A stretch of 64,000 nt of DNA. Source: an uncultured Gammaproteobacteria bacterium (GTDB taxonomy: Bacteria > Patescibacteriota > Patescibacteriia > UBA1558 > GWA2-36-10). Below the pieces are notes generated by a model that worked only from the letters and a program-made list of their open reading frames with translations, did no database searches and was not told the DNA's origin. The first letter of the stretch is position 1; each line of letters begins with the position of its first letter. The position numbers were made by a program, and so were the translations under genes. The stretch lies in the NCBI GenBank assembly GCA_964424615.1, contig CAYRIU010000007.1, positions 20,052-84,051 of the forward strand, written 5' to 3'. Below, piece by piece: positions 4 to 17,883 of the stretch.

Positions 4-1896
4 TTATTTTTTATCTTGATCGTTGACTTCTTTGAAATCACCTTCGACTGGCTCATCTTTTTTCTCTTCAGCTGGAGCAGCTTGATCTTGAGCGGCAGAT
101 TCTTGATAGAGAGTGGCACCAATTTTTTGCACGACTTCTTCTAGTTCGCTGATGGCTTTTTTGATAGCTTCAGTGTCCCCTGATTCTTTGACAGTGCGCA
201 AAGGCTCTAATTTATCTTCTATAGTTTTTTTATCTTCGTCTTTGATTTTTTCTTTCATGTCTTTCAAGAATTTATCAGTAGAAAAGATGACCTGATCAGC
301 ATGATTTTTGGTCTCGATAACTTCTTTTTTCTTTTTATCCTCTTCGGCATGTAGTTCAGCATCTTGCTGCATTTTTTTGATCTCTTCTTCAGATAGACCG
401 GAAGAAGATTGGATGGTGATAGATTGTTTCTTGCTAGTAGCACGATCGACAGCTGAGACATTCAAAATACCATTGGCATCAATATCAAAGCTAACTTCGA
501 TCTGTGGCACTCCACGTGGAGCTGGAGGTATGCCATACAAAGTAAAGCGTCCTAAAGTCTTGTTGTCAGCAGCCATCTCTCTCTCGCCTTGCAAGACATG
601 GATCTCGACACTATCTTGGCTGTCAGCGGCTGTAGAAAATACTTGGCTCTTGGAAGTTGGGATAGTGCTATTGCGAGCTATCAAAGGAGTGCGGATACCA
701 CCCAAAGTCTCAATACCCAAAGTCAATGGTGTCACATCAAGCAATAAAACATCTTTGACATCACCCTGGAGCACACCAGCTTGCACAGCAGCACCCAGTG
801 CTACTACTTCATCAGGATTGACGGAAATATTTGGTTTTTTGCCAAAAAAATCTTCAACAGCTTTTTGCACTAATGGCATGCGAGTCATACCACCGACCAA
901 AATCACTTCTTCTATATCGGTAGTTTTTAGCCCAGCATCAGCCAAAGCTTTGCGACAAGGCTCTAGTGTTCTTTCTACTAAATCATGAATAAGCTCTTCT
1001 AACTTGGCGCGAGTCATCTTCAAAATCAAGTGTTTTGGACCAGAAGCATCAGTGGTGATGAATGGCTGATTGATTTCTGTTTCAGCAGATGAAGACAATT
1101 CAATCTTAGCTTTTTCAGCAGCCTCTTTGAGACGTTGTAAGGCTAACTTGTCATTACTCAAATCAATACCCTCTTGTTTTTTGTACTCTTCTATAATCCA
1201 GTGAATAATTCTTTGATCAAAATCATCACCACCAAGATGAGTATCACCATTGGTTGATTTTACTTCTACTGTATCTTTGGAAACATCCAATACAGAGACA
1301 TCAAATGTACCACCGCCCAAATCATAAACTACGACTTGTTGATCTTTTTTCTTATCAAATCCATAAGCCAAAGCTGCGGCTGTTGGTTCGTTGATAATAC
1401 GTTTGACATCCAAACCAGCGATGCGACCAGCATCTTTGGTAGCCTGACGTTGTGAATCATCAAAATAAGCAGGAACAGTGATGACTGCTTCGGTGATTTT
1501 TTCACCCAAACGCTCTTCGGCATCAGCTTTGATCTTTTGTAAAATCATAGCTGAAACCTCCTGTGGTGAATAATCTTTGTCACCCATAGCCACAGCCACG
1601 CCTTCACCAGCTTTTTTGATCTGATAAGGCATGATCTTAATATCACGCTGCACTTCCTCGTCAGTGAATCTACGACCGATCAATCTTTTGACGGAAAAAA
1701 TAGTGTTGGTAGCATTGGTCACAGCCTGACGCTTGGCAATCAAACCAGCTAATCTTTCTCCGCTCTTGGATATTGCAACGACCGATGGCGTTGTTCTATT
1801 ACCTTCTTTATTTTCTAAAATTTTTGGTTGACCACCTTCAACAATAGCGACTGCTGAATTGGTAGTACCCAAATCAATTCCTATAATCTTTGCCAT
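4..1896 (-). CDS. dnaK: Molecular chaperone DnaK (Hsp70)
   Basis: 630 aa. N-terminal [19 protein letters not shown] and the rest of the Hsp70 signature are present throughout. TAA stop at 4-6. Confidence 0.97.
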
Positions 1897-1900
1897 ATTA

Positions 1901-2221
1901 TTAATTATTTAATAAGTTTATTAATTCTTGATTTTCTAACATTTGATGGACGCGTAAGACATCATCGGCTGATATTTCGTCGTTGGCTATAAAGCTCATC
2001 ACTTCATCAGCTTGCAAATCTGTCAAAATAGAATTACCGACAACACCTTGGGGCATAGTAGATAGTCGCGTCAATAAATGAGCTCCACAATGAGCACAAG
2101 TCATATGAGTCAGTAGTCCAAATTCATTCTCACTCAATACTTGCACCAAAGTCTGCTGATATTCACGCTGACAGACTGGACAATGCTTAATCAAACGTAA
2201 ATTAAGCGGTAAATTATCCAT
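1901..2221 (-). CDS. Hypothetical zinc-ribbon protein in the heat-shock operon
   Basis: 106 aa with CPVC...CAHC cysteine pairs. Its start overlaps the hsp20 stop (ATGA). No recognisable family. Confidence 0.5.
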
Positions 2222-2616
2222 TATTTTTTAATGTTAATTTTAATATTTTTTGATTTTGCTTTTTCTTCTTTTGGTAATACTATACGCAAAAGACCGTTGT
2301 CAAAATTTGCTTCTGCCTGATCACTATGTACAGACACCGGCAACAAAACGCTACGATGAAAAGAACCAGTGCGCACTTCTTTTCTATAATAATTTTTTTC
2401 ATCGATCTCGCTAGTACTTTGACGTCTACCTTCTATAGTCAATACGTCATCATTGACAGCAATATTGACCTCCTCTGGCTTGATGCCAGCTAAAGTAGCT
2501 TCAACTACTACATTTTCTTTGTCTTCATAAACATCTACCGCTGGCATAAAATTGCTCAAGCTTTTTTCGATGTTGTCAAAAGTGTCTAAAAATGGTGTCC
2601 ACGGTATTAATGACAT
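2221..2616 (-). CDS. Hsp20/alpha-crystallin family small heat-shock protein
   Basis: 131 aa. Alpha-crystallin domain pattern (VDVYEDKENVVVEATLAGIKPEEVNIAVNDDVLTIEG...FHRSVLLP). Confidence 0.85.
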   Translation of the reverse strand: MSLIPWTPFLDTFDNIEKSLSNFMPAVDVYEDKENVVVEATLAGIKPEEVNIAVNDDVLTIEGRRQSTSEIDEKNYYRKEVRTGSFHRSVLLPVSVHSDQAEANFDNGLLRIVLPKEEKAKSKNIKINIKK

Positions 2617-2663
2617 ATATTTATTCCTTTCTATATGCCTCTAAAAGGCTTTATTTATTTTTA

Positions 2664-3167
2664 TTAATTTATATTGTTAATAATTACTTTGGCTGGCCTC
2701 AAGACGCTTTGCTGAAACATATACCCAGCCTGCACTTCTTGCACCACCACTTGATCGGCTTGCTTCTCGTCAGTGATATGCCCGACTGCTTCATGCGTAT
2801 TAGGATCAAAACTATGACCAATACTGACAATTCTTTCTATTTTGTGATCGCGTAAAAAGTTTTGCCAAAGCTTCAAAGTGTGTTCTAAACCCTGTACCCA
2901 AGAATCTTTTTTTTGCTCTGGTGGTACATGACTCAAAGCTATTTCATAATTATCAAATATCGGCAACAATTCAGAAACTACTGAGGATAATACAAAGTCA
3001 TTGAGCTGAGCTAGACGCTGATCACTTTCTCTTTGTAGATTCTGATAGTCAGCCAAAGCTTTTTTCCAACCAGCTAGATTGATAGCTGCTTCGTCTGGAA
3101 TAGATGTATCCACTATATCTTCTCCGTCGTTCTGTGTATTGATTGTATCTTTTGTTTCTTCGTCCAT
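2664..3167 (-). CDS. grpE: Nucleotide exchange factor GrpE
   Basis: 167 aa. Coiled-coil N-terminus and a C-terminal GrpE motif (HEAVGHITDE...VVVQEVQAGYMFQQSVLRPAKV). Confidence 0.9.
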   Translation of the reverse strand: MDEETKDTINTQNDGEDIVDTSIPDEAAINLAGWKKALADYQNLQRESDQRLAQLNDFVLSSVVSELLPIFDNYEIALSHVPPEQKKDSWVQGLEHTLKLWQNFLRDHKIERIVSIGHSFDPNTHEAVGHITDEKQADQVVVQEVQAGYMFQQSVLRPAKVIINNIN

Positions 3168-3168
3168 A

Positions 3169-3834
3169 TTATTTTACAATTTTAGTTACTGAATCCATGA
3201 GGCCCAATGCTTGATTATAATTCATACGCAATGGCCCTAAAAATGCCAACAAAGATTTTTCTGGAGTATTCAATGGAGCTATGACTACCGAACAATGTTC
3301 TGACCAGGGATTTTCCGCTCCCAATAATACCTGCGGCCTATCTATCTTGTGAAACATATTGGACATAGCTCGCTCCAATGAATCAACCACTTGACTCATG
3401 GACAAGACCATTTTGTAATCTTCAAATTCTGGCTGAGAAAACAAATTGAACAAACCAGTGATATAAATATCATTTGATTCGCGACTCAAGATCATTGCTA
3501 AATTTGTTTTGTCAGACAAAGCTTTGACCAAATGACGAATGTCCGATTTATAAGCACTAGCTAAATCATCAAAGTCTTTGTGACTAGAATTTTCTACTGA
3601 CAATAAATTGTCCAAATAGTATCTATAGCCACTAGCAGTAGGAATGCGACCAGCTGAAGTATAAGGTTGCATGATAAAACCACGGTCTTCAAGATCAGCC
3701 ATTTCATTGCGGATAGTGGCTGCACTCAAATCAAAGCCACTCTCCTCAGCCAAGATCTTGGAACCAACTGGTTTAGCTGTGGCAATGTATTGCTCTACAA
3801 TAGCTTTTAATAATTTATCATGTCTAATCTCCAT
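3169..3834 (-). CDS. hrcA: Heat-inducible transcriptional repressor HrcA (short form, ~222 aa)
   Basis: N-terminal winged-HTH of HrcA (LLKAIVEQYIATAKPVGSKILAEESGFDLSAATIRNEMADLEDRGFIMQPYTSAGRIPT). The start is placed at ATG 3834 (MEIRHDK); the ORF-track N-terminal extension would run through the CIRCE. Shorter than the typical ~340 aa. Confidence 0.85.
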   Translation of the reverse strand: MEIRHDKLLKAIVEQYIATAKPVGSKILAEESGFDLSAATIRNEMADLEDRGFIMQPYTSAGRIPTASGYRYYLDNLLSVENSSHKDFDDLASAYKSDIRHLVKALSDKTNLAMILSRESNDIYITGLFNLFSQPEFEDYKMVLSMSQVVDSLERAMSNMFHKIDRPQVLLGAENPWSEHCSVVIAPLNTPEKSLLAFLGPLRMNYNQALGLMDSVTKIVK

Positions 3835-3854
3835 ATGAAGTATTATAAAGCAAA

Positions 3855-3881
3855 TTAGCACTCTATGTCAAGGAGTGCTAA
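3855..3881. promoter_or_regulatory. CIRCE operator (TTAGCACTC-N9-GAGTGCTAA, perfect) overlapping a minus-strand sigma70 promoter
   Basis: Perfect 9-N9-9 inverted repeat at 3855-3881. On the minus strand TTGACA (plus 3866-3871) lies inside the CIRCE spacer, then an 18-nt spacer and TATAAT (plus 3842-3847). The -10 is only ~7 nt from the hrcA ATG, so the transcript is leaderless or has a very short leader. Confidence 0.9.
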
Positions 3882-3903
3882 AAATACGCATTTTCCTCTT
3901 ATT

Positions 3904-5139
3904 TTACTCACGTCTTAGGGCTGTAATAGGGTCCAACTCAGCGGCTTTTTTGGCTGGATATGAGCCAAATATCAGGCCTACCAAAGTGGAGAAAACTAAA
4001 GACACAAAAATACCAATTAAAGATATGCTAAAAGGCCACACAAAACCATAACTATTGGCAATGATATATACCAAGTAGGTCACTATTGTGCCAACAATCA
4101 CGCCACCTACCCCACCCAAGATTGTGATAATCACTGCTTCTGTCAAAAACTGCCGTAAGATATTTTTTTTGGTAGAACCAACGGCTTTACGCAAACCAAT
4201 TTCAAATGTGCGCTCAGCAACTGTAGCATACATAATATTCATGATACCGACTCCACCGACAATCAAAGAAACCATAGCCAAAGCAATCAACAAAAGTGTC
4301 ACTCCACCAATAATAGTATTTAATATGTTCACTGCATCAGCCATAGTAGAAACCTGAAAATCATCACGCTTGGGATCTGTGATATCGTGTCTATCGCGCA
4401 ATATAGCTATAATCTCATCTTTGGTTTCTTCGCTTTTTTTGACATCAATCATCTGAGCGCCGACTGATTGTATGTAGTTGACGCCCAAAATCAATTTTTG
4501 AGTAGTCTGTAATGGAATATAAGCTAAAGTATCATAATCAAAAAATAGCACTGTACCTTGTGATTCCATAACACCAATGACTTTATAATTCATTTTATTG
4601 ATTTTGACGTTCTGGCCCAAGGCTTCACTACTCCCAAATAAATCTTCTTTGACTTTACTGCCCAGGACTATCACCCTGGCCATATTGTCATCTTCTTCCT
4701 TGGTATAAAAACGTCCTTCAGCCAAATCAATAGTGCCCATCTCAATATATTCGCTACTGACACCAAAAATAATAGTCTTTTTTACATTACCTTCCCAAGA
4801 TAATAAATCTTGAGCCATCACATGTCCATAACTTCTACTAATATTTGGTATCTTATTAATAGCTGCTCTATCATCCAAAGTCAGTGTAGTAATGACCACA
4901 CCAGTAGCCTGTGAAGAAACTCCTCCACTTTCTTGAGGTACTCTAGTTTCTGCTTGGATCAAATTGGAGCCAAAAGAAGCCAATTGACCATTGACCAATT
5001 TTTTCATGCTATCACCAGCAGAGACTATAATCATGACCGAAGAAATACCAATAATAACACCTAAAACTGTCAAAAGAGTACGAATCTTATTGATTCGTAA
5101 AGTTCTAATGGACATTTTTATAATTTCTCTATATGTCAT
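3904..5139 (-). CDS. ABC transporter permease, FtsX/MacB family
   Basis: 411 aa. N-terminal TM, a large periplasmic domain and a C-terminal FtsX 4-TM module. Start overlaps the stop of the upstream permease. Confidence 0.85.
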   Translation of the reverse strand: MTYREIIKMSIRTLRINKIRTLLTVLGVIIGISSVMIIVSAGDSMKKLVNGQLASFGSNLIQAETRVPQESGGVSSQATGVVITTLTLDDRAAINKIPNISRSYGHVMAQDLLSWEGNVKKTIIFGVSSEYIEMGTIDLAEGRFYTKEEDDNMARVIVLGSKVKEDLFGSSEALGQNVKINKMNYKVIGVMESQGTVLFFDYDTLAYIPLQTTQKLILGVNYIQSVGAQMIDVKKSEETKDEIIAILRDRHDITDPKRDDFQVSTMADAVNILNTIIGGVTLLLIALAMVSLIVGGVGIMNIMYATVAERTFEIGLRKAVGSTKKNILRQFLTEAVIITILGGVGGVIVGTIVTYLVYIIANSYGFVWPFSISLIGIFVSLVFSTLVGLIFGSYPAKKAAELDPITALRRE

Positions 5140-6377
5140 TATTCGTATCTTAACGCATCTATTGGATTAAGTTCAGCGGCTTTTTTGGCTGGATACCAAC
5201 CAGATAGCAAGCCGACTAAAAATGTAAAACCAACAGCCAAAACTACAGACTGCCAAGTAACTACAAAATCCCAAGCATAGCCTAAATAATTAGCCACTAC
5301 ACTCACCAACCAAGAAATAAGTACTCCAAAAAATATACCAAATAAACCACCGACCATACTCAAAACAATAGTCTGTACCAAAAATTGTATACTAATATCA
5401 CGACGACGAGCTCCGACTGCTTTACGTAGACCAATCTCACGAGTACTTTCATTAATTGAAACAAGCATGATATTCATAATACCGATACCACCAACAATCA
5501 AAGATATGCCAGCAACCATAGCCAAAAAATAGCTCAAAGCATTGGTCAAAGAATTCAAAGTATCCAAAGCCTGTACCTGAGAACGCACAGTAAAATCATC
5601 TTGCTCAGGATTACTGATATTATGACGCTCACGTATGACTCTCTGAATACTATCAATCGCTAAATCCATATCAGTATTTGGAGCCACCTTAAAACGTATG
5701 ACATTGACATAGTTGATGCCAAGCATAATTTTTTGTGCAGTATTGAGTGGTATAAAAACTTGATTATCTTGGCTTTGAAAAAAAGTACTACCACGACTTT
5801 TCATAACACCGATGACATCAAAATTTTCTTTATTTATTTTGATATGAGCACTCAGTGGATCGCTATTATTAAACAAGGCTTCAGCTACTTCACTACCTAA
5901 TACCACTACACGAGCGGCGGAACCATCTTCTTCTTCACTAAAAAAACGACCTCGCGCGACATCGGTAGCTTCCACAGCCAAATAACTAGGAGTAACTCCA
6001 GCAAAGCTAGTGTCTTTTGTCTGATTTTGCCAACTAGCAGTCGCTGAACCACGCACATAAGCTGTAAAATTTTCTATCTCTGGAACTTGGGCCACAACTG
6101 CCTGTCCATCAGAATATTTTAGTGTAGTAATATTAATACCCATCACCGAGGCTGGTGGACCATTTGATTCACTAGCGCCAGGTAATACTCCTATCAAATC
6201 AGAACCAACGCCTTTGATCTGGTTGACTACCAAACTCTGTGCTCCAGCGCCCAAAGATATGATGATAATCACCGAAGAAATGCCGATAATAATACCTAGA
6301 GAAGTCAAAAACGAGCGCATCTTATTACGCTTTACCATAGCCCAAGTAGTGATGACTGGATGCCAATCAAAATGCAT
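5139..6377 (-). CDS. ABC transporter permease, FtsX/MacB family (paralog)
   Basis: 412 aa, same architecture as the neighbouring permease. Confidence 0.85.
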   Translation of the reverse strand: MHFDWHPVITTWAMVKRNKMRSFLTSLGIIIGISSVIIIISLGAGAQSLVVNQIKGVGSDLIGVLPGASESNGPPASVMGINITTLKYSDGQAVVAQVPEIENFTAYVRGSATASWQNQTKDTSFAGVTPSYLAVEATDVARGRFFSEEEDGSAARVVVLGSEVAEALFNNSDPLSAHIKINKENFDVIGVMKSRGSTFFQSQDNQVFIPLNTAQKIMLGINYVNVIRFKVAPNTDMDLAIDSIQRVIRERHNISNPEQDDFTVRSQVQALDTLNSLTNALSYFLAMVAGISLIVGGIGIMNIMLVSINESTREIGLRKAVGARRRDISIQFLVQTIVLSMVGGLFGIFFGVLISWLVSVVANYLGYAWDFVVTWQSVVLAVGFTFLVGLLSGWYPAKKAAELNPIDALRYE

Positions 6378-6404
6378 ACTTTGTTTAAAATTGATACTAG
6401 GTGA

Positions 6405-7112
6405 TTATTTTACTAACTCTGTTTTTTCAGCAATGATTTGATCTTTGTTTTGCTCATCACTGACAATTTCGCCATCTTTGATACGTACTATACGCTGAGC
6501 ATGTTTGGCTGTATTGGTTTCATGAGTGACCAATATGATAGTGTGTCCTTCGGCATTTAGCTTCTGCAAAATAGCCATAATCTGCGTACCAGACTTGGAA
6601 TCAAGATTACCAGTGGGCTCATCAGCAAAGATAATATCAGGATTATTGACCAAAGCTCTAGCAATAGCCACTCTTTGCTTTTCTCCTCCAGACAATTGAT
6701 TGGATAAATATTGTGATCGATGACTGAGCTCTACACTGGCAATAGCCTGGTCAACCTTCTTCACATCCACCGCTTCACCAGAATACAATAATGGCAAACG
6801 CACATTTTCCCAGACTGATGTTTTGGGTAATAAATTAAAACTCTGAAAAATAAAACCAACTTTTTTATTACGATACACGGCTAAAGTATCATCATCCAAA
6901 GAAGATACATCCTTGTCTTGAAAAATATATTTACCGCTAGTCAAAGTATCCAAAAATCCTAGTATATGCATCAAGGTAGACTTACCAGATCCAGATGGTC
7001 CCATGATGGCTAAAAATTCGCCTTTGCTAATCTTTAAATTTATATCATGCAAAACCGGAGTGACCACCTCTTCGTTGGTATAATCTTTTTGTAGATTAAT
7101 GAGTTCTATCAT
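6405..7112 (-). CDS. ABC transporter ATP-binding protein (MacB/LolD-like)
   Basis: 235 aa. Walker [10 protein letters not shown], signature [15 protein letters not shown], Walker [13 protein letters not shown]. Confidence 0.92.
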
Positions 7113-7113
7113 T

Positions 7114-8787
7114 TTATTTAGCGTTTTTTATAGAAATAATGACTTTGTCACCAGCTTCTAAACCAGAAGTGATCTCCCACAGACCATCGTCACCCTTGAG
7201 ACCAACTTGCACTTCTTTTTCTACTGGCTTATCATCTTGTAAAACCTGCACAAATCTCACGTCACCACGAGCTGACACAGAGCGTGATGGCACTACCAGC
7301 ACTTCATCTTTACTATTAGTCAATATAGTGAGATTGGCGGTCATGCCTGATTTTATCTTATCGTCTTGGACATTGAAGCCAACTGTCACTTTGTAATAAA
7401 TGACCTCACTAATCACTGTAGAAGCTGGATCTATAAATGTCACAGTGCCAGTAAACACTTGATCATTACCAAAAGCATCCAAAGTAATATCTACCGTATC
7501 ACCAACTTTGAGCTTGGTAATATCAGATTCTGGTACATCTACTTTAATCTGAGTAGCACTCAAGCCAATCATGGAGATAGCAGCTTGTGACATACTGGAT
7601 TGCTCACCAACATCGACATTGATCTTGGTGACAATACCATCGACTGGGGCCTTGATCATAGTATCAGACATCAGACTATAATACCTGGCCAAAGTGGCTT
7701 CAGCCCGTCTAACATTGGCTCTTGCTATATCCAAATCAAATGATCTAGCTGGCGCTTTTTTCAAATCAAGACGAGCTTGGGCTAAATTAAGATTATTCAA
7801 AGCAGAAATCACACTATTATTAGCAGCTGTGATCTGACCTTGATAATATATTTCTTTGTTTCTGATATTACTGGCTGCTGACTGAGTAGTAGATATAGCA
7901 GTATTCAAAGCAGTACTCTGAGTATTCAAGCTAGCTTTCAAAGTAGAAATGACTGTCGGCGTGTAAACATTAGTAGTCACCGTAGCTAACATAACATTAT
8001 AAGTATTGGTCACTAAATCTGAAGTCAGTTCCAAGCTTTGCTTCAAAACATCCAAGGCTGCCAATATATCTGTTTGATCTTTGGTGTTTTTAGCTTTTTC
8101 AATATAGCTTGATAAACTATTCACTTGAGAGAGTACTTGATTGTACTGAATTTTGGTGTTGGTCAAAAATTGTACATCAGTCACGAATAAATATGTATCA
8201 GCATCACTATCCATGATAGCGTCATTGACCACATCCAAAGAATACTGAATAGTAAAATATTTATCACTCAAAGTATTCAAACCTACTGTTTTATAATTAT
8301 CCATCTCCTGATTGCTCGTCAATTGCAAATTACTCTGCGCATCTAGAGCAGTCTGATAAGCGGATTTGGCATTATCAAGCTCCCTTTGAGTCACTTCAAT
8401 ATCTTCGCTGCTAGCCCCGGCTATTAGCTGAGCCAAATTACTTTTGGCCACATCTACTGCGGCTTGGGCATCGGCTACTTGTGAGGCCACATCACCAGCT
8501 GATAATCTAGCCAAAATTTGGTTAGCTTTTACCTGATCGCCAACCTTGACTAGCATAGCCCCTACACGTCCACTAGCAGCAAAATTAAGATTGATATCAT
8601 CAGCTGATTCTACAGTACCAGTCACCTCCACAGTTTGTTTTAAATTTTTGATGACAGCGTCCTCTGTGGTATAAACTGGTTTATTTTTATTTATAGCACC
8701 AATAACTACAAAAACCACAATTAACACAACAACTAGCAGTGGTATCCAATATCTTTTTTTTTTGAGCTTTAAAAATAATGTTTTCAT
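7114..8787 (-). CDS. HlyD/MacA-family periplasmic adaptor (membrane fusion protein) with long coiled coil
   Basis: 557 aa. N-terminal TM anchor, a long alpha-helical hairpin region, and C-terminal beta-barrel/lipoyl-like segments typical of the MFP family. Immediately upstream of the ABC ATPase. Confidence 0.8.
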   Translation of the reverse strand: MKTLFLKLKKKRYWIPLLVVVLIVVFVVIGAINKNKPVYTTEDAVIKNLKQTVEVTGTVESADDINLNFAASGRVGAMLVKVGDQVKANQILARLSAGDVASQVADAQAAVDVAKSNLAQLIAGASSEDIEVTQRELDNAKSAYQTALDAQSNLQLTSNQEMDNYKTVGLNTLSDKYFTIQYSLDVVNDAIMDSDADTYLFVTDVQFLTNTKIQYNQVLSQVNSLSSYIEKAKNTKDQTDILAALDVLKQSLELTSDLVTNTYNVMLATVTTNVYTPTVISTLKASLNTQSTALNTAISTTQSAASNIRNKEIYYQGQITAANNSVISALNNLNLAQARLDLKKAPARSFDLDIARANVRRAEATLARYYSLMSDTMIKAPVDGIVTKINVDVGEQSSMSQAAISMIGLSATQIKVDVPESDITKLKVGDTVDITLDAFGNDQVFTGTVTFIDPASTVISEVIYYKVTVGFNVQDDKIKSGMTANLTILTNSKDEVLVVPSRSVSARGDVRFVQVLQDDKPVEKEVQVGLKGDDGLWEITSGLEAGDKVIISIKNAK

Positions 8788-8851
8788 CTCTTTAGAAATT
8801 TATCTAATAAATATAATTTTAATATCTAGGCTAAGACCTCTATATAACATA

Positions 8852-8892
8852 TTAGCACTCTATATTATAGAGTGCTAATATTTTTTTGTCAA
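8852..8892 (-). promoter_or_regulatory. Second perfect CIRCE (8852-8878) overlapping a consensus sigma70 promoter (TTGACA-17-TATAAT) for the efflux operon
   Basis: TTAGCACTC-tatattata-GAGTGCTAA at 8852-8878. On the minus strand TTGACA is plus 8887-8892 and TATAAT is plus 8864-8869, separated by a 17-nt spacer that is the left CIRCE arm. About 70 nt upstream of the HlyD start at 8787. Confidence 0.85.
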
Positions 8893-8947
8893 TTTAATAA
8901 ATTAAGCAAAAACATTATTAAATAAACATAAATTGTGGTAATAAAAA

Positions 8948-9454
8948 CTATCTAACAACTTCAATATTTTGAGTATTATAACTGTCGCAAGCACCAACTA
9001 TCATTTTACCAGTGGACTCTCTATAGAAATAATAGCCACTATTTCTGGCATCAGTGCCATAGGAAAAATTTGGATCTAATGGTATCTGACCCATGTAGCC
9101 GTTGGTCACTAAAGCTGATAAATCGATCAAAGCTGTGGTGGTAGTTGGATTACCTTTAGTAACTGTCTGGCATGTAGCAAAGGCCGTTCCACCAGTAGTA
9201 GTAGCAATGGAGTAAGTTACACCAGATGTAGGAGAAGGAGTGGTGGTGGGATGCGTACCACCGTTATCAGCCAAATAAGCACTATAAGCGTCTGCTATAG
9301 CGGTCACATCAGACCAACGTCTAGCATTATTAGCGTCACCTACTCTTTTGGCTGGATTGATAGCCACAAATGTAGCGGCAGCTAGCAAGGCAATGACTGC
9401 TATGACGATGATTAACTCTATAAGAGTAAAACCTTTTGTAAATTTTTTTCTCAT
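8948..9454 (-). CDS. Type IV pilin (prepilin-type N-terminal cleavage/methylation domain)
   Basis: 168 aa. MRKKFTKG|FTLIELIIVIAVIALLAA class III signal with G-1, F+1, E+5. N-terminal half nearly identical to the neighbouring pilin; C-terminal half divergent. Confidence 0.9.
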   Translation of the reverse strand: MRKKFTKGFTLIELIIVIAVIALLAAATFVAINPAKRVGDANNARRWSDVTAIADAYSAYLADNGGTHPTTTPSPTSGVTYSIATTTGGTAFATCQTVTKGNPTTTTALIDLSALVTNGYMGQIPLDPNFSYGTDARNSGYYFYRESTGKMIVGACDSYNTQNIEVVR

Positions 9455-9479
9455 ATTTTTTTATTTAATATTATAAATT

Positions 9480-9956
9480 TTATCTGACTAAAACTGGATA
9501 ATTTGTTCCATATTTTTTACACGAGCCTATTTTTAACTTACCAGAATCTTCGCGATACAACCAATATAAAGTATTATAACCATTAGAGCTAGTATATAAA
9601 GGATCTTTCGGAATCTGCCCAATATAGCCATCATCAATCAAAGTATCTAAAACCAAAAAAGCTGATGTTGTAGTAGCATCACAACCAGCTGTACCACTAC
9701 CACCAGTAGTAGTAGCTAACATATAAGTCACACCGCTAGACATTGTAGAACTTGGTAATGAGCTATTATTATCTGCTAGATAGGCCTGGAAGGCATCAGC
9801 TACAGCTGATAAATCCTGCCACCTAGTGGCATCTCCTGCATTACCTACTCTCCTTGCTGGATTGATAGCTACGAATGTAGCAGCAGCTAGTAAGGCAATG
9901 ATAGCAATAACAATAATCAACTCAATTAATGTAAACCCTTGATTTTTATTTTCCAT
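9480..9956 (-). CDS. Type IV pilin (major pilin paralog)
   Basis: 158 aa. MENKNQG|FTLIELIIVIAIIALLAA. An extended -10 TGtTATAAT sits on the minus strand at plus 9978-9986. Confidence 0.9.
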   Translation of the reverse strand: MENKNQGFTLIELIIVIAIIALLAAATFVAINPARRVGNAGDATRWQDLSAVADAFQAYLADNNSSLPSSTMSSGVTYMLATTTGGSGTAGCDATTTSAFLVLDTLIDDGYIGQIPKDPLYTSSNGYNTLYWLYREDSGKLKIGSCKKYGTNYPVLVR

Positions 9957-10029
9957 GTAAAAATATAATAATGTTTATATTATAACATGTTTTTGTATTT
10001 TAAGACAGTATCTTATTTATCCACAAGCC

Positions 10030-11787
10030 TTATTTATTAGCAATAGTCATATTGACCTGCAAATTGGCTTGTTGATTATTGACATCAATACTTTTGATTG
10101 TGTAATTAAATGATTTAATGTCCAAATTAGCAGCCTTTTGCCTGTCATTAACTACTGGTAACTGACTGGTCAAAATATTTTTGATATCAGTCTGATTGAT
10201 AGCCAAAACTTGAAAGGTAGCTGTAATATTGATAGCCTGGCCTACTGTAAAATTTTCAATAGTTGGCTGAATATCATCGACGGTTGTATTGACAATAGCC
10301 GGTATCAAATACAAAACGCCCTTGCTATATTCCTTGTTCAGACCACCGAGCAATTGCGTAGTCATGTCAGCTAAAATATTTTTCTTGACCTGCTCATAGC
10401 TAAGTTCTGGATAATCCCTCTGCTGACTCAAGGTAAAAGGCACAAGCTGGGCATAGACAAAATCTTTAGCGCCAACTTTATTTTCCACTCCCACTACTAC
10501 TGATTTGTCAGTAAAATCAAAACTAATTTTTGGATTAAGTAATGTTTTTATAGGACCACGCAAAAACCAAGCTGCCCCCGCTAAGCCAACCAAAATAATA
10601 GCCACAATAAAATAAACACTAGTAATCACTTTTTTCCAAGTAGCTTCTTCTACTTCTGCATCATTGACATCATCACTATTGCCCTCTGAGGCATTATTTT
10701 TTTCCTTGTGAGCTTTATCAGCTAATAAACCTAATTTGTTTCTATTGGCTTCATTAAAAAAATTGAGCTCGCTCTTGGTATGAGCTAGGCGAGCCAAGCC
10801 CAAAGCATTGATATACTTGGTAAATACAACTTGATCTTTATCTTTGTGTTCACTCAAAAAACTCTCACCAATAAAAGCTGGTACAGATAAATTGGCACTA
10901 AAATAATCCACCAATCCGCGCATCTGGGTCAGACCACCGATCAAAATCACCTGCTCTATTTTTAAATTAGACATCTGCTCCCAATAAACCACAAAACGCT
11001 TGATCTCATCGGTCAATGGCTGGAGTTGTCCCTGCAACATGAGCATCACTTCTCCGTCACCAGGTGCAGCAGTCAAGCCAACATCGCGCAATCTATTTTC
11101 GGCTTCAGCATAGCTAATATTAAATCTATTCTTCACAGCTACTAAAATCTCATTACCCCCAATGCCTATATTGATAGAAGATCGGATGCCACGTCCATCA
11201 TAAATACTAGCAATAGTCACTTTTGATCCTAAATCCAAAAGTAAGGTGGTAGTTTTTTTGAATTTATCATGCAGACCAGCAATAGCAGCTATAGACTCGG
11301 TAGTAATACCAGCTACTTCTATATCCAAATCTTTAAATAATTTGATATAAGAACGCACAATGTCCATCTCGGCTGCTATATAGGTAAACTCCCTATGACT
11401 ATTGTTGACCAAAAGCTCCTGAGAAGCAGTCAATAAATTATCAAAATCTTCTGGTATGGTCTCCTCTGCTTGATGCTGTATAGCTTCTGGTACTTCTTTG
11501 GATTTCAAAGCTTTTGGTATACTGATATTCCTAATAAAAGCCCTAGACTCTGGTATAGAAAAATATACCTTACTTGGATTTATGGGTCTGGGGTGACCAT
11601 TTTTAAACATAGCTGATAGCGCATCTTTGAGCTTGTCTGCCTTTACTAGACGACCACCCTCGATAATATCTGGTGAAATCCTAAATCTAGAATAGCTATC
11701 TACACTAAAACCAGTGCCATGCTTCTTGAGGACAATAGCCTCAATAGAGGCATCTGACATATCTAGACCAATAATATCCTTGGACAT
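10030..11787 (-). CDS. pilM: Type IV pilus assembly protein PilM fused to a PilN/PilO-like membrane segment
   Basis: Actin-like PilM N-terminus (IIGLDMSDASIEAIVLKK), a TM helix around residue 400 (VYFIVAIILVGLAGAAWFL), then a periplasmic domain. Start set at ATG 11787 (MSKDIIG); the ORF-track extension to 11850 would translate through the conserved leader element. Confidence 0.8.
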   Translation of the reverse strand: MSKDIIGLDMSDASIEAIVLKKHGTGFSVDSYSRFRISPDIIEGGRLVKADKLKDALSAMFKNGHPRPINPSKVYFSIPESRAFIRNISIPKALKSKEVPEAIQHQAEETIPEDFDNLLTASQELLVNNSHREFTYIAAEMDIVRSYIKLFKDLDIEVAGITTESIAAIAGLHDKFKKTTTLLLDLGSKVTIASIYDGRGIRSSINIGIGGNEILVAVKNRFNISYAEAENRLRDVGLTAAPGDGEVMLMLQGQLQPLTDEIKRFVVYWEQMSNLKIEQVILIGGLTQMRGLVDYFSANLSVPAFIGESFLSEHKDKDQVVFTKYINALGLARLAHTKSELNFFNEANRNKLGLLADKAHKEKNNASEGNSDDVNDAEVEEATWKKVITSVYFIVAIILVGLAGAAWFLRGPIKTLLNPKISFDFTDKSVVVGVENKVGAKDFVYAQLVPFTLSQQRDYPELSYEQVKKNILADMTTQLLGGLNKEYSKGVLYLIPAIVNTTVDDIQPTIENFTVGQAINITATFQVLAINQTDIKNILTSQLPVVNDRQKAANLDIKSFNYTIKSIDVNNQQANLQVNMTIANK

Positions 11788-11808
11788 TTTAAATACTTTA
11801 CTTCTTAA

Positions 11809-11949
11809 TTCACCCCGTTGAATAGTCCCGCTAGGCGGGACTACCGCCAAAAAAATATTTTTAATTATTTTATTTTTATCATTAAATAATTAACTCTTCT
11901 ATCACCAATAGTATTTAGGTGGCGGTATTCAACAGGGTAAATTATAACA
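11809..11949 (-). promoter_or_regulatory. Promoter plus structured 5' leader element, copy 1 (upstream of pilM)
   Basis: Minus strand: TGtTATAAT (plus 11941-11949), then ttaccctgttgaataccgcc, a 72-nt AT-rich spacer, ggcggtag, hairpin tcccgc-cta-gcggga, ctattcaacggggtgaa, about 21 nt, then the pilM ATG. Same architecture as 61654-61800. Confidence 0.6.
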
Positions 11950-11962
11950 TTTTTCAAAAAAT

Positions 11963-11992
11963 AAAAAAAGTTGGCTCAATAACCAACTTTTT
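11963..11992 (-). terminator. Rho-independent terminator after the Cys-rich pilin gene
   Basis: Hairpin agttgg-ctcaataa-ccaact flanked by an A7 run on the plus strand (T7 on the minus strand) and a T run, so it can act in both directions. Confidence 0.7.
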
Positions 11993-12026
11993 ATGATTAT
12001 ATTATATAATAAATAAAACACTTGTA

Positions 12027-12902
12027 TTACATACTAGGACAAATTTTAGTACAACCACCACAATTGGCATTGCAATAACCACCACTACAACCAACTGGTC
12101 CGGAGTGTGGGGTACCAGCAACGCCACATTCTGGGCCAGTATAGTCACACACCTCCGTCCTAGATACAGTACCATTACACGTATCGTTGCAATAAGTGCC
12201 ATTCTGCTTGATACCATCACCACACACTTCGGCACCATCATCACAAGTCTCTGTCAAAGTGATAGTAGCTGTACAAGTAGAATTGCAATGATTACTACCG
12301 CTTTCTACAATAAGATTACCACAAGTTTGAGTTTCATCTGTAGTATTGCCATCATCACAGACTTCTGTGCCTTCTATACTGCCATTGCCACAGACCTGAC
12401 AAACTCCACAATCACCACCGCAAGTACTACAGCTTTCTGTGGCATTACATATGCCATCACCACAACAAGAATTGTTCAAACAAGTACCAGCAATATAATC
12501 CTTGTGTGACTGAATAAAAAATGGCGAACTAGAAACATTGACTAGCATCACTACCGACTTACTCCAAGAGCCTACAGCCGAAGTAGTGGTAGCTGTAGAG
12601 GTAACTGTCTTAAGACCAGCATCAGTAGCAGAAATCTTATAAGAACAACTAACACCACCAATGTCAATAGAATAATCACCAGATGCACTAGTAGTAGAAG
12701 CTATCTGCCACATAGCATCACTCAAACAAGCATCAATATTGTACATCACATCATCAGACTCTAGAGTATGATAATTAGCGATATTATTTGAAGTATTGAC
12801 CATAGCGATGATCACACTGGAGACAATAAAAATAGAAGTGATCATAATCACAAAAATCAACGCTACAAACCCATTATTATTTTTTCTTAAATTATTTATC
12901 AT
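12027..12902 (-). CDS. Pilin-like protein with C-terminal cysteine-rich repeats (Myxococcus Cys-rich-repeat-like CGNG..E.CDDGN)
   Basis: 291 aa. N-terminal hydrophobic prepilin-like helix (NNGFVALIFVIMITSIFIV). C-terminal approx 150 aa has more than 30 Cys with two CG(N/D)G...E(V)CDDG(N/A) units. Confidence 0.7.
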   Translation of the reverse strand: MINNLRKNNNGFVALIFVIMITSIFIVSSVIIAMVNTSNNIANYHTLESDDVMYNIDACLSDAMWQIASTTSASGDYSIDIGGVSCSYKISATDAGLKTVTSTATTTSAVGSWSKSVVMLVNVSSSPFFIQSHKDYIAGTCLNNSCCGDGICNATESCSTCGGDCGVCQVCGNGSIEGTEVCDDGNTTDETQTCGNLIVESGSNHCNSTCTATITLTETCDDGAEVCGDGIKQNGTYCNDTCNGTVSRTEVCDYTGPECGVAGTPHSGPVGCSGGYCNANCGGCTKICPSM

Positions 12903-12906
12903 AATA

Positions 12907-14214
12907 TTAATTTGCTCCCTGAGATTGTAGAGCCCAAATCTCTGAATTTGATAAAGCTCTATTATACAAACGTAATTCGTCTATAGTGCCAGCAAAATGA
13001 TCACCAATATGCGGATAGTTGCTAGTAGAATCATTGACCAAGAATGGCAGACTAGAAGCTGTAGTTGTACTAATATTGCCAACTCCTTTTTCATAGATCA
13101 ACATTTTAGCACTATCAGTAGGTAGATCATATACGACAGTAATATTGTAGACGGTGGCGTCAGCTAATATAGAACCGGCATCCAAAATATTAGAGCAAGT
13201 TGTGCCATTACACAAAGTAAAAATTACTTGCCCAGCATCTTCATTATTCAATAAATAATAACCCTTTGAACTACCATTAAATTTATTTATAATACCATGC
13301 TCTGAGGCATCTGGTGCATCAGTCTTGACCCAGGTGGATATGGTAAAACCATTACCAAAATTGAATTGTTCTGGATTATTAACATAACAATAATCAGAAT
13401 CTGCAGGATCAAAGTAAAAAGCATTGGTACTGCCATCTACCAAACCAGTAACAGATGTTGGACCACCAGTGCCAGTGCAAATCAAATTATAACCACCCAC
13501 CTTATCTGTGGCTGCACTAGTATCTGTATCATCAAACTTGTACCAGCTGACTAAGCCATTTGGCTGCTCATTGCGCATATCAGCAGTACTAGTAGCCTCT
13601 GAGCTAGCTCGCAAGCTAATCTGATCAGATGAAGGTAAAGTGACCTTGAGATGAGTAGTGACAGTGCTATAGCTATTGGCTGTGGTAGAAGCTGTAGAAG
13701 TAGAAAAATCCAGATTAGAATTGGTCACTATCACTTCTGGGCCAGTCAAAAAATAAGAATTATCCGCACTAGCTGCGCAGGCATTGTATTGACCATTGTT
13801 GGCAATATTTGGATAACAAGTCATCTTAAGGCGATTATTTACTACTGTAATTTTTACTCCCCCACCTCTCTCTACACACACGCCTGGTAAATAATTATCA
13901 TCTTCAAAATACAAAGCTAATATTGGTGGATTGACATTAAAATTAGAGCAATCTCCATCTATATCTTTGAGTAAACCATCGGCATTTCTGATCAAATAAT
14001 TAATAGTAGATAAAGCAGAACGTCTATTACGAGAAGCGTCTATATTAGCACTGATCTTGGCAGTCGTATTACCCATAGTCAAAGCAAAATCTACAACCGC
14101 CGAAATCACAATACCAACAATAGCCAAATAAATAATAGCTTCTACCAATGTAAAAGCAGCTAAAGATTTTTTTTGACGCAAAATATTATTTTTTAAACAT
14201 ACTTTCTTGAACAT
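12907..14214 (-). CDS. Pseudopilin with C-terminal LamG/concanavalin-A-like lectin domain
   Basis: 435 aa. Prepilin-like N-terminus (SLAAFTLVEAIIYLAIVGIVISAVV). C-terminal LamG_3-like pattern (NGLVSWYKFDDTD...GYNL...FTISTWVK...IDELRLYNRALSNSEIWALQ). Confidence 0.75.
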   Translation of the reverse strand: MFKKVCLKNNILRQKKSLAAFTLVEAIIYLAIVGIVISAVVDFALTMGNTTAKISANIDASRNRRSALSTINYLIRNADGLLKDIDGDCSNFNVNPPILALYFEDDNYLPGVCVERGGGVKITVVNNRLKMTCYPNIANNGQYNACAASADNSYFLTGPEVIVTNSNLDFSTSTASTTANSYSTVTTHLKVTLPSSDQISLRASSEATSTADMRNEQPNGLVSWYKFDDTDTSAATDKVGGYNLICTGTGGPTSVTGLVDGSTNAFYFDPADSDYCYVNNPEQFNFGNGFTISTWVKTDAPDASEHGIINKFNGSSKGYYLLNNEDAGQVIFTLCNGTTCSNILDAGSILADATVYNITVVYDLPTDSAKMLIYEKGVGNISTTTASSLPFLVNDSTSNYPHIGDHFAGTIDELRLYNRALSNSEIWALQSQGAN

Positions 14215-14226
14215 TGATAAAAAAAT

Positions 14227-17200
14227 TTAACGGTAATTGAGGCGCAATGAATACAAGGTAGCTGTTTCCGAATTATTATTACAGGAAGTCAAAGCTAATC
14301 TATATCTAAAATATCTCAAGTTATTCAAAGAAGCTGGAGTGCTGCTGGTAAAATTTGACGCACTACTATCGGCAAATGCTTGACTATTATAAGTAGCAAA
14401 AGAATTGTCATTGCTACCCTCTAGTGTCAAGGTCAAAGAACAACCACTAGGTATACTTTGAAAAAGTTTGATACTATTCAAAACTTTGTCACTAGAACCA
14501 AGATCAATAATAGAAGATACTAAGCTACCAGGCGAACTATACAAAGAAGCATTGGACTCTGAACCAATAGAATAAAAAGTAGAAGTAGCAGTCATGTTAT
14601 TGTACTCTGTCTTGATCCAACCAGCACTACGCAAAGTTTTGGAAACACGCACTTCATCAATACCACCCTTAAAGAAATAACTACTAGAGCTCCAATCACG
14701 ACCAATGTACATATTATTTGAAGTGCCTATAGAATAGGAATCTGTAACAGCCGCTTTACTATTATCTGCGTTACCATTAACGTAAAATTGATAACCAACA
14801 CTTCTATCATTAGTCAAGGCAATATGCGTCCATATATCTTCTGTCAAAGCATTTGTTGTATAAACATCACCTAAGTCAACGCTACCAGATCCTGCCATAA
14901 ATTGTAGTTTATCTCCTGCTCCTTGATGATAGCGTATATTCCAACCTTCAGCTATAGTGGCATTACCATTACCTTTATATATAGGACAAGAATAATCCGT
15001 ACCCGTAGAATCCGGCTTGATCCAAAATTCTACAGTAAAATCACTGGTTCCTTGCTGATTATCAGCATTATTAGTGATAGTCTGATAGTCATAACTACCA
15101 TCATAAGTTTGACCATGACCAACTTTACCATTTGATTGTAAGGGGCCATTGGTAACATACTTGGTAGCATCATTAGTATTAAATTTGCTATTTCTATTTT
15201 TAGTGGTGCTAGCCACATTGAGTGTCACTAGATCATCCAGATGCTGAACTACTTGATAATTACTATCCCAAACGCTAGATACACGCTCCATAGGAGTAAT
15301 AATGTGGCTATTACCATAAAACATATAAATATCAGTATTCGTAATACTAGATAGAGATGGTATGCGTACATAAGCCTCTATTTGTCCTGTACTGGAGCTA
15401 TAAGATACTAATTCATGATCCAAAAGTGTGGTCTGATCATCAGCGGTAAATAAAATATCATAACCCTTGTCACTCTGTATTCTGCCACCATTGGTCACTG
15501 TTTTCAGGTAACTTTGTATTTCTGAAATCAAAACCGGAAAACTACTGTGTGGACCACTCTGCACTTGACTACTATTGATAGTAATTTTTCTTTGATAGCT
15601 AAAAGAAGTGGGAGTAGGACGTGTCTCTGGACGAGAAATAAAATACATACGAAAAACATAACCAGTACTATTATACTCTAAAAAGAAAAAACCACCCTGA
15701 GCACTAACATATCTAGCATAATGATGTGGCCAGGTAGTCATGGTAGAAGCATAAGTCGAAGTATCAGAAGTGACACTGGTGATATTCGTAGGATCAGATA
15801 CATCTAGGGCGTACATATTGGCTTCGGTAGTACTATAAGTAATGACAGTACCATCACCATCATATATCAAACCAGACGAACTAAAGGTAGCCGGAACATC
15901 ATAAGTATCAAGTAAAGTAAAACTACTACCTGTATCCCTCACTGTTTTGACTTCTGCGCTAGTTTCTTCTGTAGCTATAGCAAAAGTATTACCACTACCT
16001 GAATTACCTAAATAAACTAAATCATTAGTATGAGCGGAACCAGTATACTTATAAACCAAACTAACACTAGCCGTATTGGAAATATCCCACTTACTAATAG
16101 AATAAGCAGAATTTTCTCCAGTTACATACAAATAAGGTGTAGCTCCGCTCTCATCTAGCCACATATTATGTGGAGTGGTACCCCACTGTTGCCAAGCAGA
16201 AGATACTAGGTTACCTTGAGATGAGTTGCCAGCTAAGTCTCCAGTCAATGTAGAGCCATCAGCTGATATAGTAAATGAATATAAACCACCATAAGCGCCC
16301 GTAGCTAATAATTTGGTTTGAGCTGCGTTGATAGCTATATCCATAATCCTATTACTAGCCACAACATCAGTGGTATTGAGTGTCTGCACAATAGTCTGAG
16401 TATATAAATCAATCACTTGGATAAACTTAGCACCATCACTAAATGGTCCTCTGCCAAGATAAGCATAGTGTCCGTTGGGATGAATTTTACAAGAATAAAT
16501 CTCTTCAGCTATGGTCATATTCCACAAAAGATTAATTTTGTTCTCTCGGACATTGCTAATATCGTAGGCTGAAATACCAAGGCCACTACCACCACAAGCA
16601 TACATAGTATCTCCGTCTGGAGAAGTATCCATGGCATAGTTCGTTGGCCAACCACCAGTGATAGCAATATAAGTCTCTGGTGATAAATCAGCCCAATCAC
16701 CAAAACTGCCATTACTCGCTGACTGCAAGGCCAAAGAAACCTGACCAACAGTAGAGGTGCTCACATTGCTATAGGAAGATGAGGCAGTGATCATACTAGC
16801 CCAAAATTCATTGGCTGTGGTCCCAGACCAATCAGTCTGCTCCCAAGTTTTACTGGACCAATTGGTATAAAATGTAGTCAAAACATAATCAGCTATGCCA
16901 GTACCAGAAACTGTGACTGTCACTTGCTTGGTATCTGGGTCATCTGTGCCACCAGAAGCCACGATAGACCCAGCACTATTACGCTGCACATCACTGACTA
17001 CAATCACCCTAGTCAAGCCATTTGATATATTACTAGTGCCACTAAACTCCCACAAACCATTGTTTTTCTGCACTCCTCGGGGACTGCCATCAGCAGCTGC
17101 CACGATAGTTTGCCAGCCATTGTCCCTGATACTACGAGTAGCCTCCATACCCTCTTGGGCAAATTGGGCAATAGCTTGCTTATCACCAACACCAAAAAAA

Positions 17201-17320
17201 TTTTTATAAGAAGTAGTAAAAACATAAACAACTCCCGAGGCCAAAATAGAAAAAATAGCGATAGCTACAATCAGCTCTACCAGAGAGAAGCCTTGTATTT
17301 TTTTTAATATTTTTTTTCAT
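14227..17320 (-). CDS. Giant (~1030 aa) minor-pilin-like adhesin (beta-propeller-like region plus LamG domain); 5' end disrupted by a 1-nt frameshift in a poly-A(8) tract
   Basis: The ORF track gives 14227-17244 starting with a TTG inside a hydrophobic helix. Immediately upstream, the same frame reads KKILKKIQG|FSLVELIVAIAIFSILASGVV, a canonical prepilin signal, but the ATG at 17318-17320 is +1 out of frame across two A8 runs. A C-terminal LamG-like segment is present (TVEFWIKPD...GGIDEVRVS). Confidence 0.7.
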
Positions 17321-17322
17321 GA

Positions 17323-17883
17323 CTAATCACCATAATATACTAATCCTGCTGGAGTAGTACTGACTGTTTTTTGTTCACTCACTGTATTGACCAAGATAAT
17401 AGCCTGCTCTGGCATTTCATAAGCCAAAGTAGTAGTACTCAACCAACCAGCTACTCTAGAAAAATAAAATTCATTTTGCTGATCACTGTTGGCTAAAGAC
17501 ACGCCATTTTTCAAATCAAAAATACTATCATAAGAGCTGTCCCTCGTATCATAGCTCCTGCCTTTGAATACCACTACACAGTCACCGCTATTGAGACAGG
17601 CTGAATTATTATCCAATACCTTGACACCCCAATCGTCGGAAAAATATCCAGTCACAGCATAATTTCTAGCTTTGGCAATATGATCGACTACCGCTTTAGC
17701 GCTAGCGTCCAAACTTTTTTCTTGAGTACGACTACCCAACAAAGAAGCACCAGAAGACAACAAAATCAACATAATAGCCACTATCAACAAAACTTCAATC
17801 AAAGTAAAAGCTCCTTGGGGCAATATACCTTTTAGTCGATATTTATATATTTTTTTTATAAATAAATGCACAACAATTAACAC
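17323..17883 (-). CDS. Pseudopilin (prepilin-type N-terminal domain protein)
   Basis: 186 aa. ...KGILPQG|AFTLIEVLLIVAIMLILL with G-1 and E+5. The exact start is uncertain. Confidence 0.75.
   Translation of the reverse strand: MLIVVHLFIKKIYKYRLKGILPQGAFTLIEVLLIVAIMLILLSSGASLLGSRTQEKSLDASAKAVVDHIAKARNYAVTGYFSDDWGVKVLDNNSACLNSGDCVVVFKGRSYDTRDSSYDSIFDLKNGVSLANSDQQNEFYFSRVAGWLSTTTLAYEMPEQAIILVNTVSEQKTVSTTPAGLVYYGD

Follow-up and report, generated by a model that had tools for sequence, protein, structure and literature searches.

A perfect CIRCE within the promoter of a MacAB/YknXYZ-like exporter operon, next to the hrcA-dnaK operon, in one clade of Patescibacteria

RESULTS

A four-gene exporter operon lies between a pilus cluster and the hrcA-dnaK operon

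The stretch of DNA analyzed here, hereafter referred to as the window, is 64 kb long. The genes and regulatory features discussed below are as follows, with the evidence for each in parentheses.

4-1896, minus strand: dnaK (Pfam; synteny)
1901-2221, minus strand: 106-aa CxxC..CxxC (Cys4) protein (synteny)
2221-2616, minus strand: hsp20 (Pfam; synteny)
2664-3167, minus strand: grpE (Pfam; synteny)
3169-3834, minus strand: hrcA, short form of 221 aa (Pfam HrcA; match to 1stz)
3855-3881, minus strand: perfect CIRCE of the hrcA operon, spacer CTTGACATA (pattern search)
3904-5139, minus strand: MacB-type permease 2 (MacB_PCD + FtsX), paralogue of permease 1 (Pfam)
5139-6377, minus strand: MacB-type permease 1 (MacB_PCD + FtsX) (Pfam; PDB MacB, 1e-58, and Spr0695 [5xu1], 4e-39)
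6405-7112, minus strand: ABC ATPase subunit, with a gene of its own rather than fused to a permease (Pfam ABC_tran, 3.6e-33)
7114-8787, minus strand: MacA/YknX-like membrane-fusion adaptor, 557 aa (Pfam HlyD_D23 and HlyD_3; PDB MacA, 2e-23)
8849-8881, no strand assigned: 33-nt perfect palindrome extending the CIRCE, with a 15-bp stem and a 3-nt loop
8852-8878, minus strand: perfect CIRCE TTAGCACTC-TATAATATA-GAGTGCTAA, predicted to serve the pump operon as HrcA operator (pattern search)
8864-8869, minus strand: -10 hexamer TATAAT within the CIRCE spacer (promoter scan, 12/12, 17-nt spacing)
8887-8892, minus strand: TTGACA, the -35 box of the macA promoter (the same in all 8 aligned genomes)
8948-9454, minus strand: type IV pilin-like gene at the end of a pilus cluster (Pfam N_methyl)

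A first-pass annotation, made from the sequence alone, had placed an HlyD adaptor, an ABC ATPase, and two FtsX permeases downstream of the upper CIRCE, and these gene calls are confirmed by Pfam. The pump operon is compact: its genes are 1, 27, and -1 nt apart, and the start of permease 2 overlaps the stop of permease 1. The adaptor fits the HlyD/MacA type, which is characterized by lipoyl, beta-barrel, and alpha-hairpin domains, by Pfam, by its match to MacA in the PDB, and by an AF2 model (pLDDT 84.5), for which the best fold matches in Foldseek are the MacA chains of MacAB-TolC. The model has a transmembrane helix at the N-terminus, a pair of helices ~66-68 residues long, and an additional helical subdomain. 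YknX-type Pfam families are recorded for homologues of the adaptor. Both permeases fit the MacB type, which is characterized by four FtsX-type transmembrane helices, the first two separated by a large extracytoplasmic domain, and the cognate ATPase is encoded within the operon. The label MacAB-like is justified by the sequence matches of the adaptor and permeases, the fold matches of the adaptor, and the YknX-type families. The further proposal that the pump is of the tripartite type is not supported at this point, as no TolC-family exit-duct gene was found by Pfam in the operon or among the annotated genes of window positions 1-28,137, and the nearest analogues are YknXYZ and Spr0693-0695. 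Patescibacteria are generally regarded as having no outer membrane. Both permease paralogues are kept in all related loci that reach that far, and the two are likely to be the partners of a heterodimer.

Directly upstream of the pump operon, positions 8948-24319 contain a type IV pilus cluster with several pilin-like genes, PilM, PilC, and PilB, as well as two large Laminin_G_3 proteins with pilin-like N-termini, and CheA-like and MCP-like genes come after the cluster. Within it, 12027-12902 encodes a 291-aa cysteine-rich protein with repeated CGDG/CGNG-type motifs and no Pfam match. The adjacency of the pilin gene and macA is kept in the related loci L001-L031. In the window, there is no intrinsic terminator between the pilin-like gene and the CIRCE promoter, and the whole 64 kb contains no tRNA genes and no Rfam families at the gathering threshold.

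The -10 box of the macA promoter lies within the spacer of a perfect CIRCE

A pattern search of the window for TTAGCACTC-N9-GAGTGCTAA returned two sites with 0 mismatches, 8852-8878 upstream of macA and 3855-3881 upstream of hrcA, and no further site with up to 3 mismatches allowed. The chance expectation is 0.04 matches, and two or more matches occurred in 0 of 100 dinucleotide shuffles. On the minus strand, the upper site is interleaved with the macA promoter, TTGACA (8892-8887)-17 nt-TATAAT (8869-8864), in the sequence aaaTTGACAaaaaaataTTAGCACTCTATAATATAGAGTGCTAAtatgtt, such that the left CIRCE arm (8878-8870) forms the final 9 nt of the 17-nt promoter spacer and the -10 occupies positions 1 to 6 of the CIRCE spacer TATAATATA. 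A consensus scan of positions 1-10200 found only two sigma70 promoters that match at 12/12 positions, and these are the promoters of the macA CIRCE and the hrcA CIRCE. The coordinates and description that the first-pass annotation had given are correct. The repeat itself, an hrcA gene in the genome, the overlap with a promoter, and conservation upstream of orthologues, the sequence-level characteristics by which a CIRCE is recognized, were all found for 8852-8878.

The predicted transcription start lies inside the right CIRCE arm, at ~8855-8860, and conservation supports promoter activity. With a start at that point, the macA mRNA would not contain the hairpin, and the element would be expected to work as DNA rather than as RNA. 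An operator that covers both the promoter spacer and the -10 would be expected to keep RNA polymerase out.

The downstream operon encodes a shortened HrcA

The two promoter-operators differ in geometry. The hrcA CIRCE holds the -35 (3871-3866) in its spacer, with the -10 TATAAT (3847-3842) located 7 nt past the right arm, whereas the macA CIRCE holds the -10 in its spacer. The CTTGAC spacer of the hrcA operator is kept in more than 25 related loci. The ATG of hrcA follows the -10 by 6-7 nt in the window (3834-3847) and in nearly all relatives, with the same position in more than 20 loci (in L001, for example, near 14000), and for this reason the hrcA mRNA is probably leaderless. In a transcript reading through from the pump, the same ATG would be internal and has no obvious Shine-Dalgarno sequence.

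The winged-helix domain of the encoded HrcA (residues 4-87) matches Thermotoga maritima HrcA (1stz) at 1.5e-17. The C-terminal Pfam domain is aligned from profile position 99 only, that is, over its second half, so that ~100 residues of the usual protein are missing; in total length it is ~120 aa shorter than characterized HrcA proteins. The missing segment would presumably include the inserted dimerization domain. Given a truncated HrcA with half a C-terminal domain, dimerization and GroEL dependence are not to be assumed for this protein. HrcA proteins of similarly reduced length (219-239 aa) are encoded in many metagenomic loci of the CPR type. Neither the window nor the 80 related loci described below yielded a GroEL gene. 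The hrcA-dnaK operon is without dnaJ. The 106-aa protein encoded between hsp20 and dnaK has two CxxC pairs and no Pfam match, is kept in that place in L001-L031, L034, and L039, and could be an uncharacterized zinc-ribbon co-chaperone.

The macA operator is invariant in one clade and absent from its sister lineages

The names of homologues place the organism in Patescibacteria, close to Komeilibacteria. For comparison, 80 species-representative loci encoding homologues of the adaptor were scanned for CIRCE. Only L001-L004 (~80% identity), L006, L030, and L034 (55%) carry it upstream of the adaptor; another metagenomic relative, L204, has the macA CIRCE as well, for a total of nine species-level genomes of Patescibacteria including the window. 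Contigs from the clade, besides that of the window, include JBAYIQ010000003, CALMZN010000079, JBAZKN010000001, and CAZWIT010000002, and MHKS01000005 is an example from a sister genome that lacks the operator. Both arms are invariant in all nine. The spacer in the clade is always TATAATATR or TAAAATATA, with a -10 of TATAAT or TAAAAT, and the block TTGACAAAA-N5-TTAGCACTC-TAtAATATr-GAGTGCTAAT is invariant in the 8 aligned genomes, the adaptors of which are 55-82% identical. In the alignment, TTGACAAAA-N5-CIRCE-T stands as an invariant island in scrambled flanking intergenic DNA. DnaK identity is 78-80% across the lineages that preserve the macA module. In a neighbor-joining tree of six concatenated proteins, the CIRCE-bearing genomes that could be placed form one clade in 100/100 bootstraps, and no independent gain of a CIRCE upstream of macA was found elsewhere in the 80 loci at up to 3 mismatches. 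In L001 (8863-9000) and L004 (3278-3447), the interval between the CIRCE and the adaptor start contains an extra ~110 nt with inverted repeats (aaatttctaac.../...gttagaaatt).

The first-pass annotation had named conservation upstream of orthologous ABC operons as a check on its proposal. Such conservation was found throughout the nine genomes of this clade but not in sister lineages, which share the ten-gene synteny yet have an ordinary promoter without a CIRCE. In the operator-less relatives (L007, L009-L031 with the CIRCE-bearing L030 set apart, and L201-L203), an ordinary TATAAT promoter with a weaker -35 stands in the same place, after the stop of the pilin gene and an intrinsic terminator, and the best CIRCE-like match has at least 6 mismatches.

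These comparisons also bear on whether the palindrome might function as RNA, that is, as a terminating or stabilizing hairpin in transcripts reading through from the pilin gene rather than as a DNA operator. The hairpin formed by 8849-8881 would be stable (-19.4 kcal/mol, z = -4.7), and apart from it the pilin gene of the window is not followed by a terminator, whereas the relatives have one at that position. However, no U-tract follows the hairpin on the coding strand, the sole T-run being on the plus strand, which carries no gene here, and both arms are exactly the HrcA consensus without compensatory variation in nine genomes. The 3-bp extension of the stem beyond the CIRCE is specific to the window, and neither it nor the palindromic character of the spacer is conserved in the relatives, whereas the -35 and -10 are. 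We therefore consider an RNA element very improbable. A terminator or hairpin as the main function was rejected, as the element is terminator-like only on the gene-less strand and its extended stem is not conserved.

The linkage of pump and chaperone genes is older than the operator

By tblastn, the block pilin-adaptor-ATPase-permease 1-permease 2-hrcA-grpE-hsp20-Cys4-dnaK is kept in L001-L031 and L034. Most loci in which the adaptor is 47-82% identical have a perfect CIRCE of the hrcA type (CTTGACnnn spacer) ~4.9 kb downstream from where the adaptor gene starts, and several loci at 30-40% identity have a CIRCE with 0-3 mismatches and other spacers in the same hrcA position. The adjacency macAB-hrcA-grpE-(hsp20)-dnaK extends to loci named as Komeili-, Buchanan-, Veblen-, Kerfeld-, and Uhrbacteria (L001-L056), with adaptor identity down to ~30-35%, and the linkage of macAB, hrcA, and dnaK may itself be under selection, as the breadth of this adjacency suggests. 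The genes upstream of macA differ among the loci that share the adjacency.

Other arrangements were observed in more distant loci. In L040 (8205-8438), a small AbrB/MazE-fold (SpoVT-type) gene lies directly upstream of the adaptor, with similar sequence in that place in L036 and L041-L043, and its product may be a local regulator of the pump in distant lineages. The regulation of the pump operon seems to have been swapped repeatedly. In Moranbacteria-like loci without hrcA linkage, a CIRCE precedes dnaJ (L071, 1667-1693; L074, 3894-3920; L079, 2401-2427), followed on the same strand by a response regulator, recJ, an RNase H gene, and a macAB-like operon 4-5 kb downstream. These CIRCEs were considered as pump operators and discarded, as the sites belong to dnaJ; the arrangement appears to be a second, looser association of the pump with a chaperone gene under predicted HrcA control.

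The same module design usually precedes chaperone and protease genes

To place the macA module among its counterparts, metagenomes were scanned for a CIRCE with TAWAAT at spacer positions 1-6, which gave at least 120 loci, of which 120 were sampled. Most sampled loci have a TTGAC box eight bases upstream of the CIRCE. Among the 120 matches listed, the first downstream gene is dnaK in 28, hrcA in 17, groES in 13, and hsp20 in 4; many of the hrcA products among these matches are 228-239 aa long. A further 33 of the 120 had no BLAST assignment and 23 had no usable ORF. Within the unassigned group, a scan of three proteins of 759-870 aa showed them to be ClpB/ClpC-like, and their N-termini recur in other proteins of about that length; FtsH, ClpP, and a sigma factor were each met once. 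In a few of the matches listed the orientation is doubtful, the targets being a glycosyltransferase, a pyrophosphatase, a CAAX protease, and a DUF4143 ATPase. As the same design precedes dnaK, hrcA, groES, hsp20, clpB/C-like genes, ftsH, and clpP, it can be regarded as the standard HrcA-type heat-shock promoter-operator of CPR-type genomes. The adaptor is the first gene in 2 of the 120 matches listed, one on the contig of L001 and the other in a sequence matching L006, and the remaining targets are mostly chaperone or protease genes where they could be identified. The pump is an exceptional, clade-specific client of the module; the first-pass annotation had called it an unusual expansion of the HrcA regulon. 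The accompanying statement that CIRCE is normally confined to groESL and dnaK operons was too strict, since rpoH (PMC545781), a type III secretion effector (PMC12038028), and clpB, hsp20, ftsH, and clpP of CPR genomes are also preceded by it.

Outside the clade, the five modules nearest to that of the pump at unconstrained positions (L157, L129, L128, L090, and L200) all precede groES, which follows only 13 of the 120 modules sampled, and the TTGACAAAAAATAA-CIRCE of L129 is an exact match to the sequence upstream of the operator in L001. There are thus hints that the pump module was copied from a groES promoter, although relatedness and base composition confound the comparison. An origin as a duplicate of the neighboring hrcA operator was rejected, as the two sites are built differently, with the -10 in one spacer and the -35 in the other, and their flanks bear no relation to each other. 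Likeness to groES-type modules would also fit a non-functional relic, a recently duplicated copy of a chaperone promoter with no regulatory role. Against such a relic, or a chance match, stand the 0.04 matches expected by chance, the different architecture of the hrcA operator, of which the module is no copy, and the persistence of the module across lineages at 55% adaptor and 78-80% DnaK identity in which the neighboring intergenic bases have diverged. We regard a relic or chance match as the least probable of the readings considered here, with hardly any chance of being correct.

The junction between the two operons is tight and free of a terminator

In the window, the second permease gene stops 22 nt short of the hrcA operator, and no terminator lies in the interval. 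Across the clade, the junction is 22-42 nt and terminator-free in 8 of 9 members, the exception being L004, which has a 403-nt insertion at this junction (8368-8770). This insertion and the ~110-nt stretches of L001 and L004 look like small mobile or duplicated elements. As suggested in the first-pass annotation, read-through from the pump into hrcA-dnaK is physically possible, and the short gap without a terminator makes a transcript of ~8.9 kb plausible. HrcA bound at the hrcA operator could, however, act as a roadblock to such transcription.

This arrangement raises a different purpose for the upper operator, namely that it was selected as an insulator that blocks leakage from the pump promoter into hrcA-grpE-dnaK, which would bypass the autoregulation of HrcA. 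Stress control of the pump would then be a by-product and would say nothing about what the pump does. The proximity of the hrcA operator without an intervening terminator and the ancient adjacency of the two operons are consistent with this, and the perfect-consensus promoter of the clade would leak strongly if unrepressed, the -35 boxes of the relatives being weaker. At least 10 relatives, however, have equally tight junctions of 25-36 nt with no upstream CIRCE, so read-through is evidently tolerated, and HrcA at the hrcA operator could itself be the roadblock. Insulation makes the same molecular prediction as a functional HrcA operator of the pump and is compatible with it; as the explanation for the selection of the operator, we consider it unlikely but deserving of consideration.

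DISCUSSION

The results reported here indicate that, in a single clade of Patescibacteria, a MacAB/YknXYZ-like exporter operon has very probably been recruited into the HrcA regulon. The site at 8852-8878 is probably a functional HrcA operator set in a strong sigma70 promoter that drives the four-gene exporter operon, a reading in which we have considerable confidence given the perfect CIRCEs in the window against a chance expectation of 0.04, the 12/12 promoters, the presence of hrcA, the conserved block, and the monophyly of the genomes that carry it. The comparisons establish the sequence, geometry, conservation, and phylogenetic distribution of the element, and it is from these that we infer HrcA binding, stress induction, and read-through.

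In the mechanism we propose, an HrcA dimer on the CIRCE of unstressed cells would cover the promoter spacer and the -10 and keep RNA polymerase off. As unfolded proteins build up, HrcA would lose activity, either by titration of GroEL or as an intrinsic thermosensor, the two models from other bacteria, and the pump promoter would fire together with that of hrcA-grpE-hsp20-dnaK, which lies 5 kb downstream of it, with transcripts from the pump promoter probably running on into the chaperone operon. The operator would have been gained once, in the ancestor of a clade of Komeilibacteria-related Patescibacteria, where the new operator-promoter replaced an ordinary promoter in the much older pilin-macAB-hrcA-dnaK block and was strictly maintained thereafter.

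What this implies for the function of the exporter is less clear. Since relatives manage with an unregulated pump promoter, heat control is not essential to the pump system. The linkage across deeply diverged Patescibacteria, together with recruitment into the HrcA regulon in one clade, suggests a coupling between the exporter and the DnaK/Hsp20 machinery, and the exporter might conceivably be a working part of the proteostasis system rather than a drug pump, an idea we put forward with more reserve even than insulation. A possible role of this kind would be to expel or extract misfolded envelope or pilin proteins, or peptides, under stress.

Patescibacteria are uncultivated and have tiny genomes with few recognizable regulators, and a regulon that can be read from sequence is a rare handle on their physiology. 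Here, it leads to the prediction that in one clade an envelope ABC exporter is induced together with the chaperones, and it suggests an evolutionary route to this control, a promoter swap inside an ancient macAB-hrcA-dnaK block. The block itself is flagged as a conserved and unexplained association of an exporter with a heat-shock operon. In metatranscriptomes, macA would be expected to track dnaK and groES in this clade only, and the sister genomes, which have the same genes without the operator, provide a natural comparison. The mechanism is conventional and the target unusual, and the finding is an incremental addition to the growing list of lineage-specific HrcA targets.

Full-text literature searches found no relevant work on HrcA/CIRCE in Patescibacteria, nor any that connects MacB-type pumps with HrcA, and the closest comparisons are with systems in other phyla. 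The widespread HrcA/CIRCE control of groESL and hrcA-grpE-dnaK(J), for which Bacillus subtilis is the paradigm, shares with the window the 9-N9-9 consensus, the presence and autoregulation of hrcA, an operator fused to a sigma70-type promoter, and the co-regulation of dnaK, grpE, and hsp20, here next door. The window differs from the paradigm in that the target is a membrane ABC exporter rather than a chaperone or protease, the -10 lies within the operator spacer, HrcA is shorter, and hrcA is apparently leaderless. Non-chaperone targets of CIRCE have been described in Geobacter sulfurreducens (rpoH; PMC545781) and, by HrcA ChIP, in Chlamydiota (the type III secretion effector wcw_0502/ctl0271; PMC12038028). 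As in those cases, recruitment is clade-restricted and the CIRCE is conserved in orthologous intergenic regions, but the phylum and the kind of target are different, and the evidence for the pump comes from comparative genomics.

For the pump itself, the closest counterparts are the monoderm MacAB-like pumps YknWXYZ of B. subtilis and Spr0693-0694-0695 of Streptococcus pneumoniae (5xu0/5xu1, 5f9q), which likewise have a separate ATPase, an FtsX/MacB_PCD permease, and an HlyD/YknX-type adaptor, with no outer-membrane partner gene. The window differs from both in having two permease paralogues rather than one and in its 557-aa adaptor, the helices of which are much longer and are joined by an additional helical subdomain. 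Both the permease (1e-58) and the adaptor find their best matches, in sequence and in fold, in MacAB-TolC of Escherichia coli (5nik), but E. coli MacB is a fused ATPase-permease that acts as a homodimer and is tripartite via TolC, whereas the ATPase of the window is separate and its permeases are probably heterodimeric; Spr0695 is homodimeric as well, so that the permease pair of the window implies a different assembly from either. With regard to regulation, yknWXYZ of B. subtilis belongs to the sigma-W envelope-stress regulon, which provides a precedent for stress control of a MacAB-like pump in a monoderm, with the difference that the predicted regulator in the Patescibacteria clade is HrcA rather than an ECF sigma factor.
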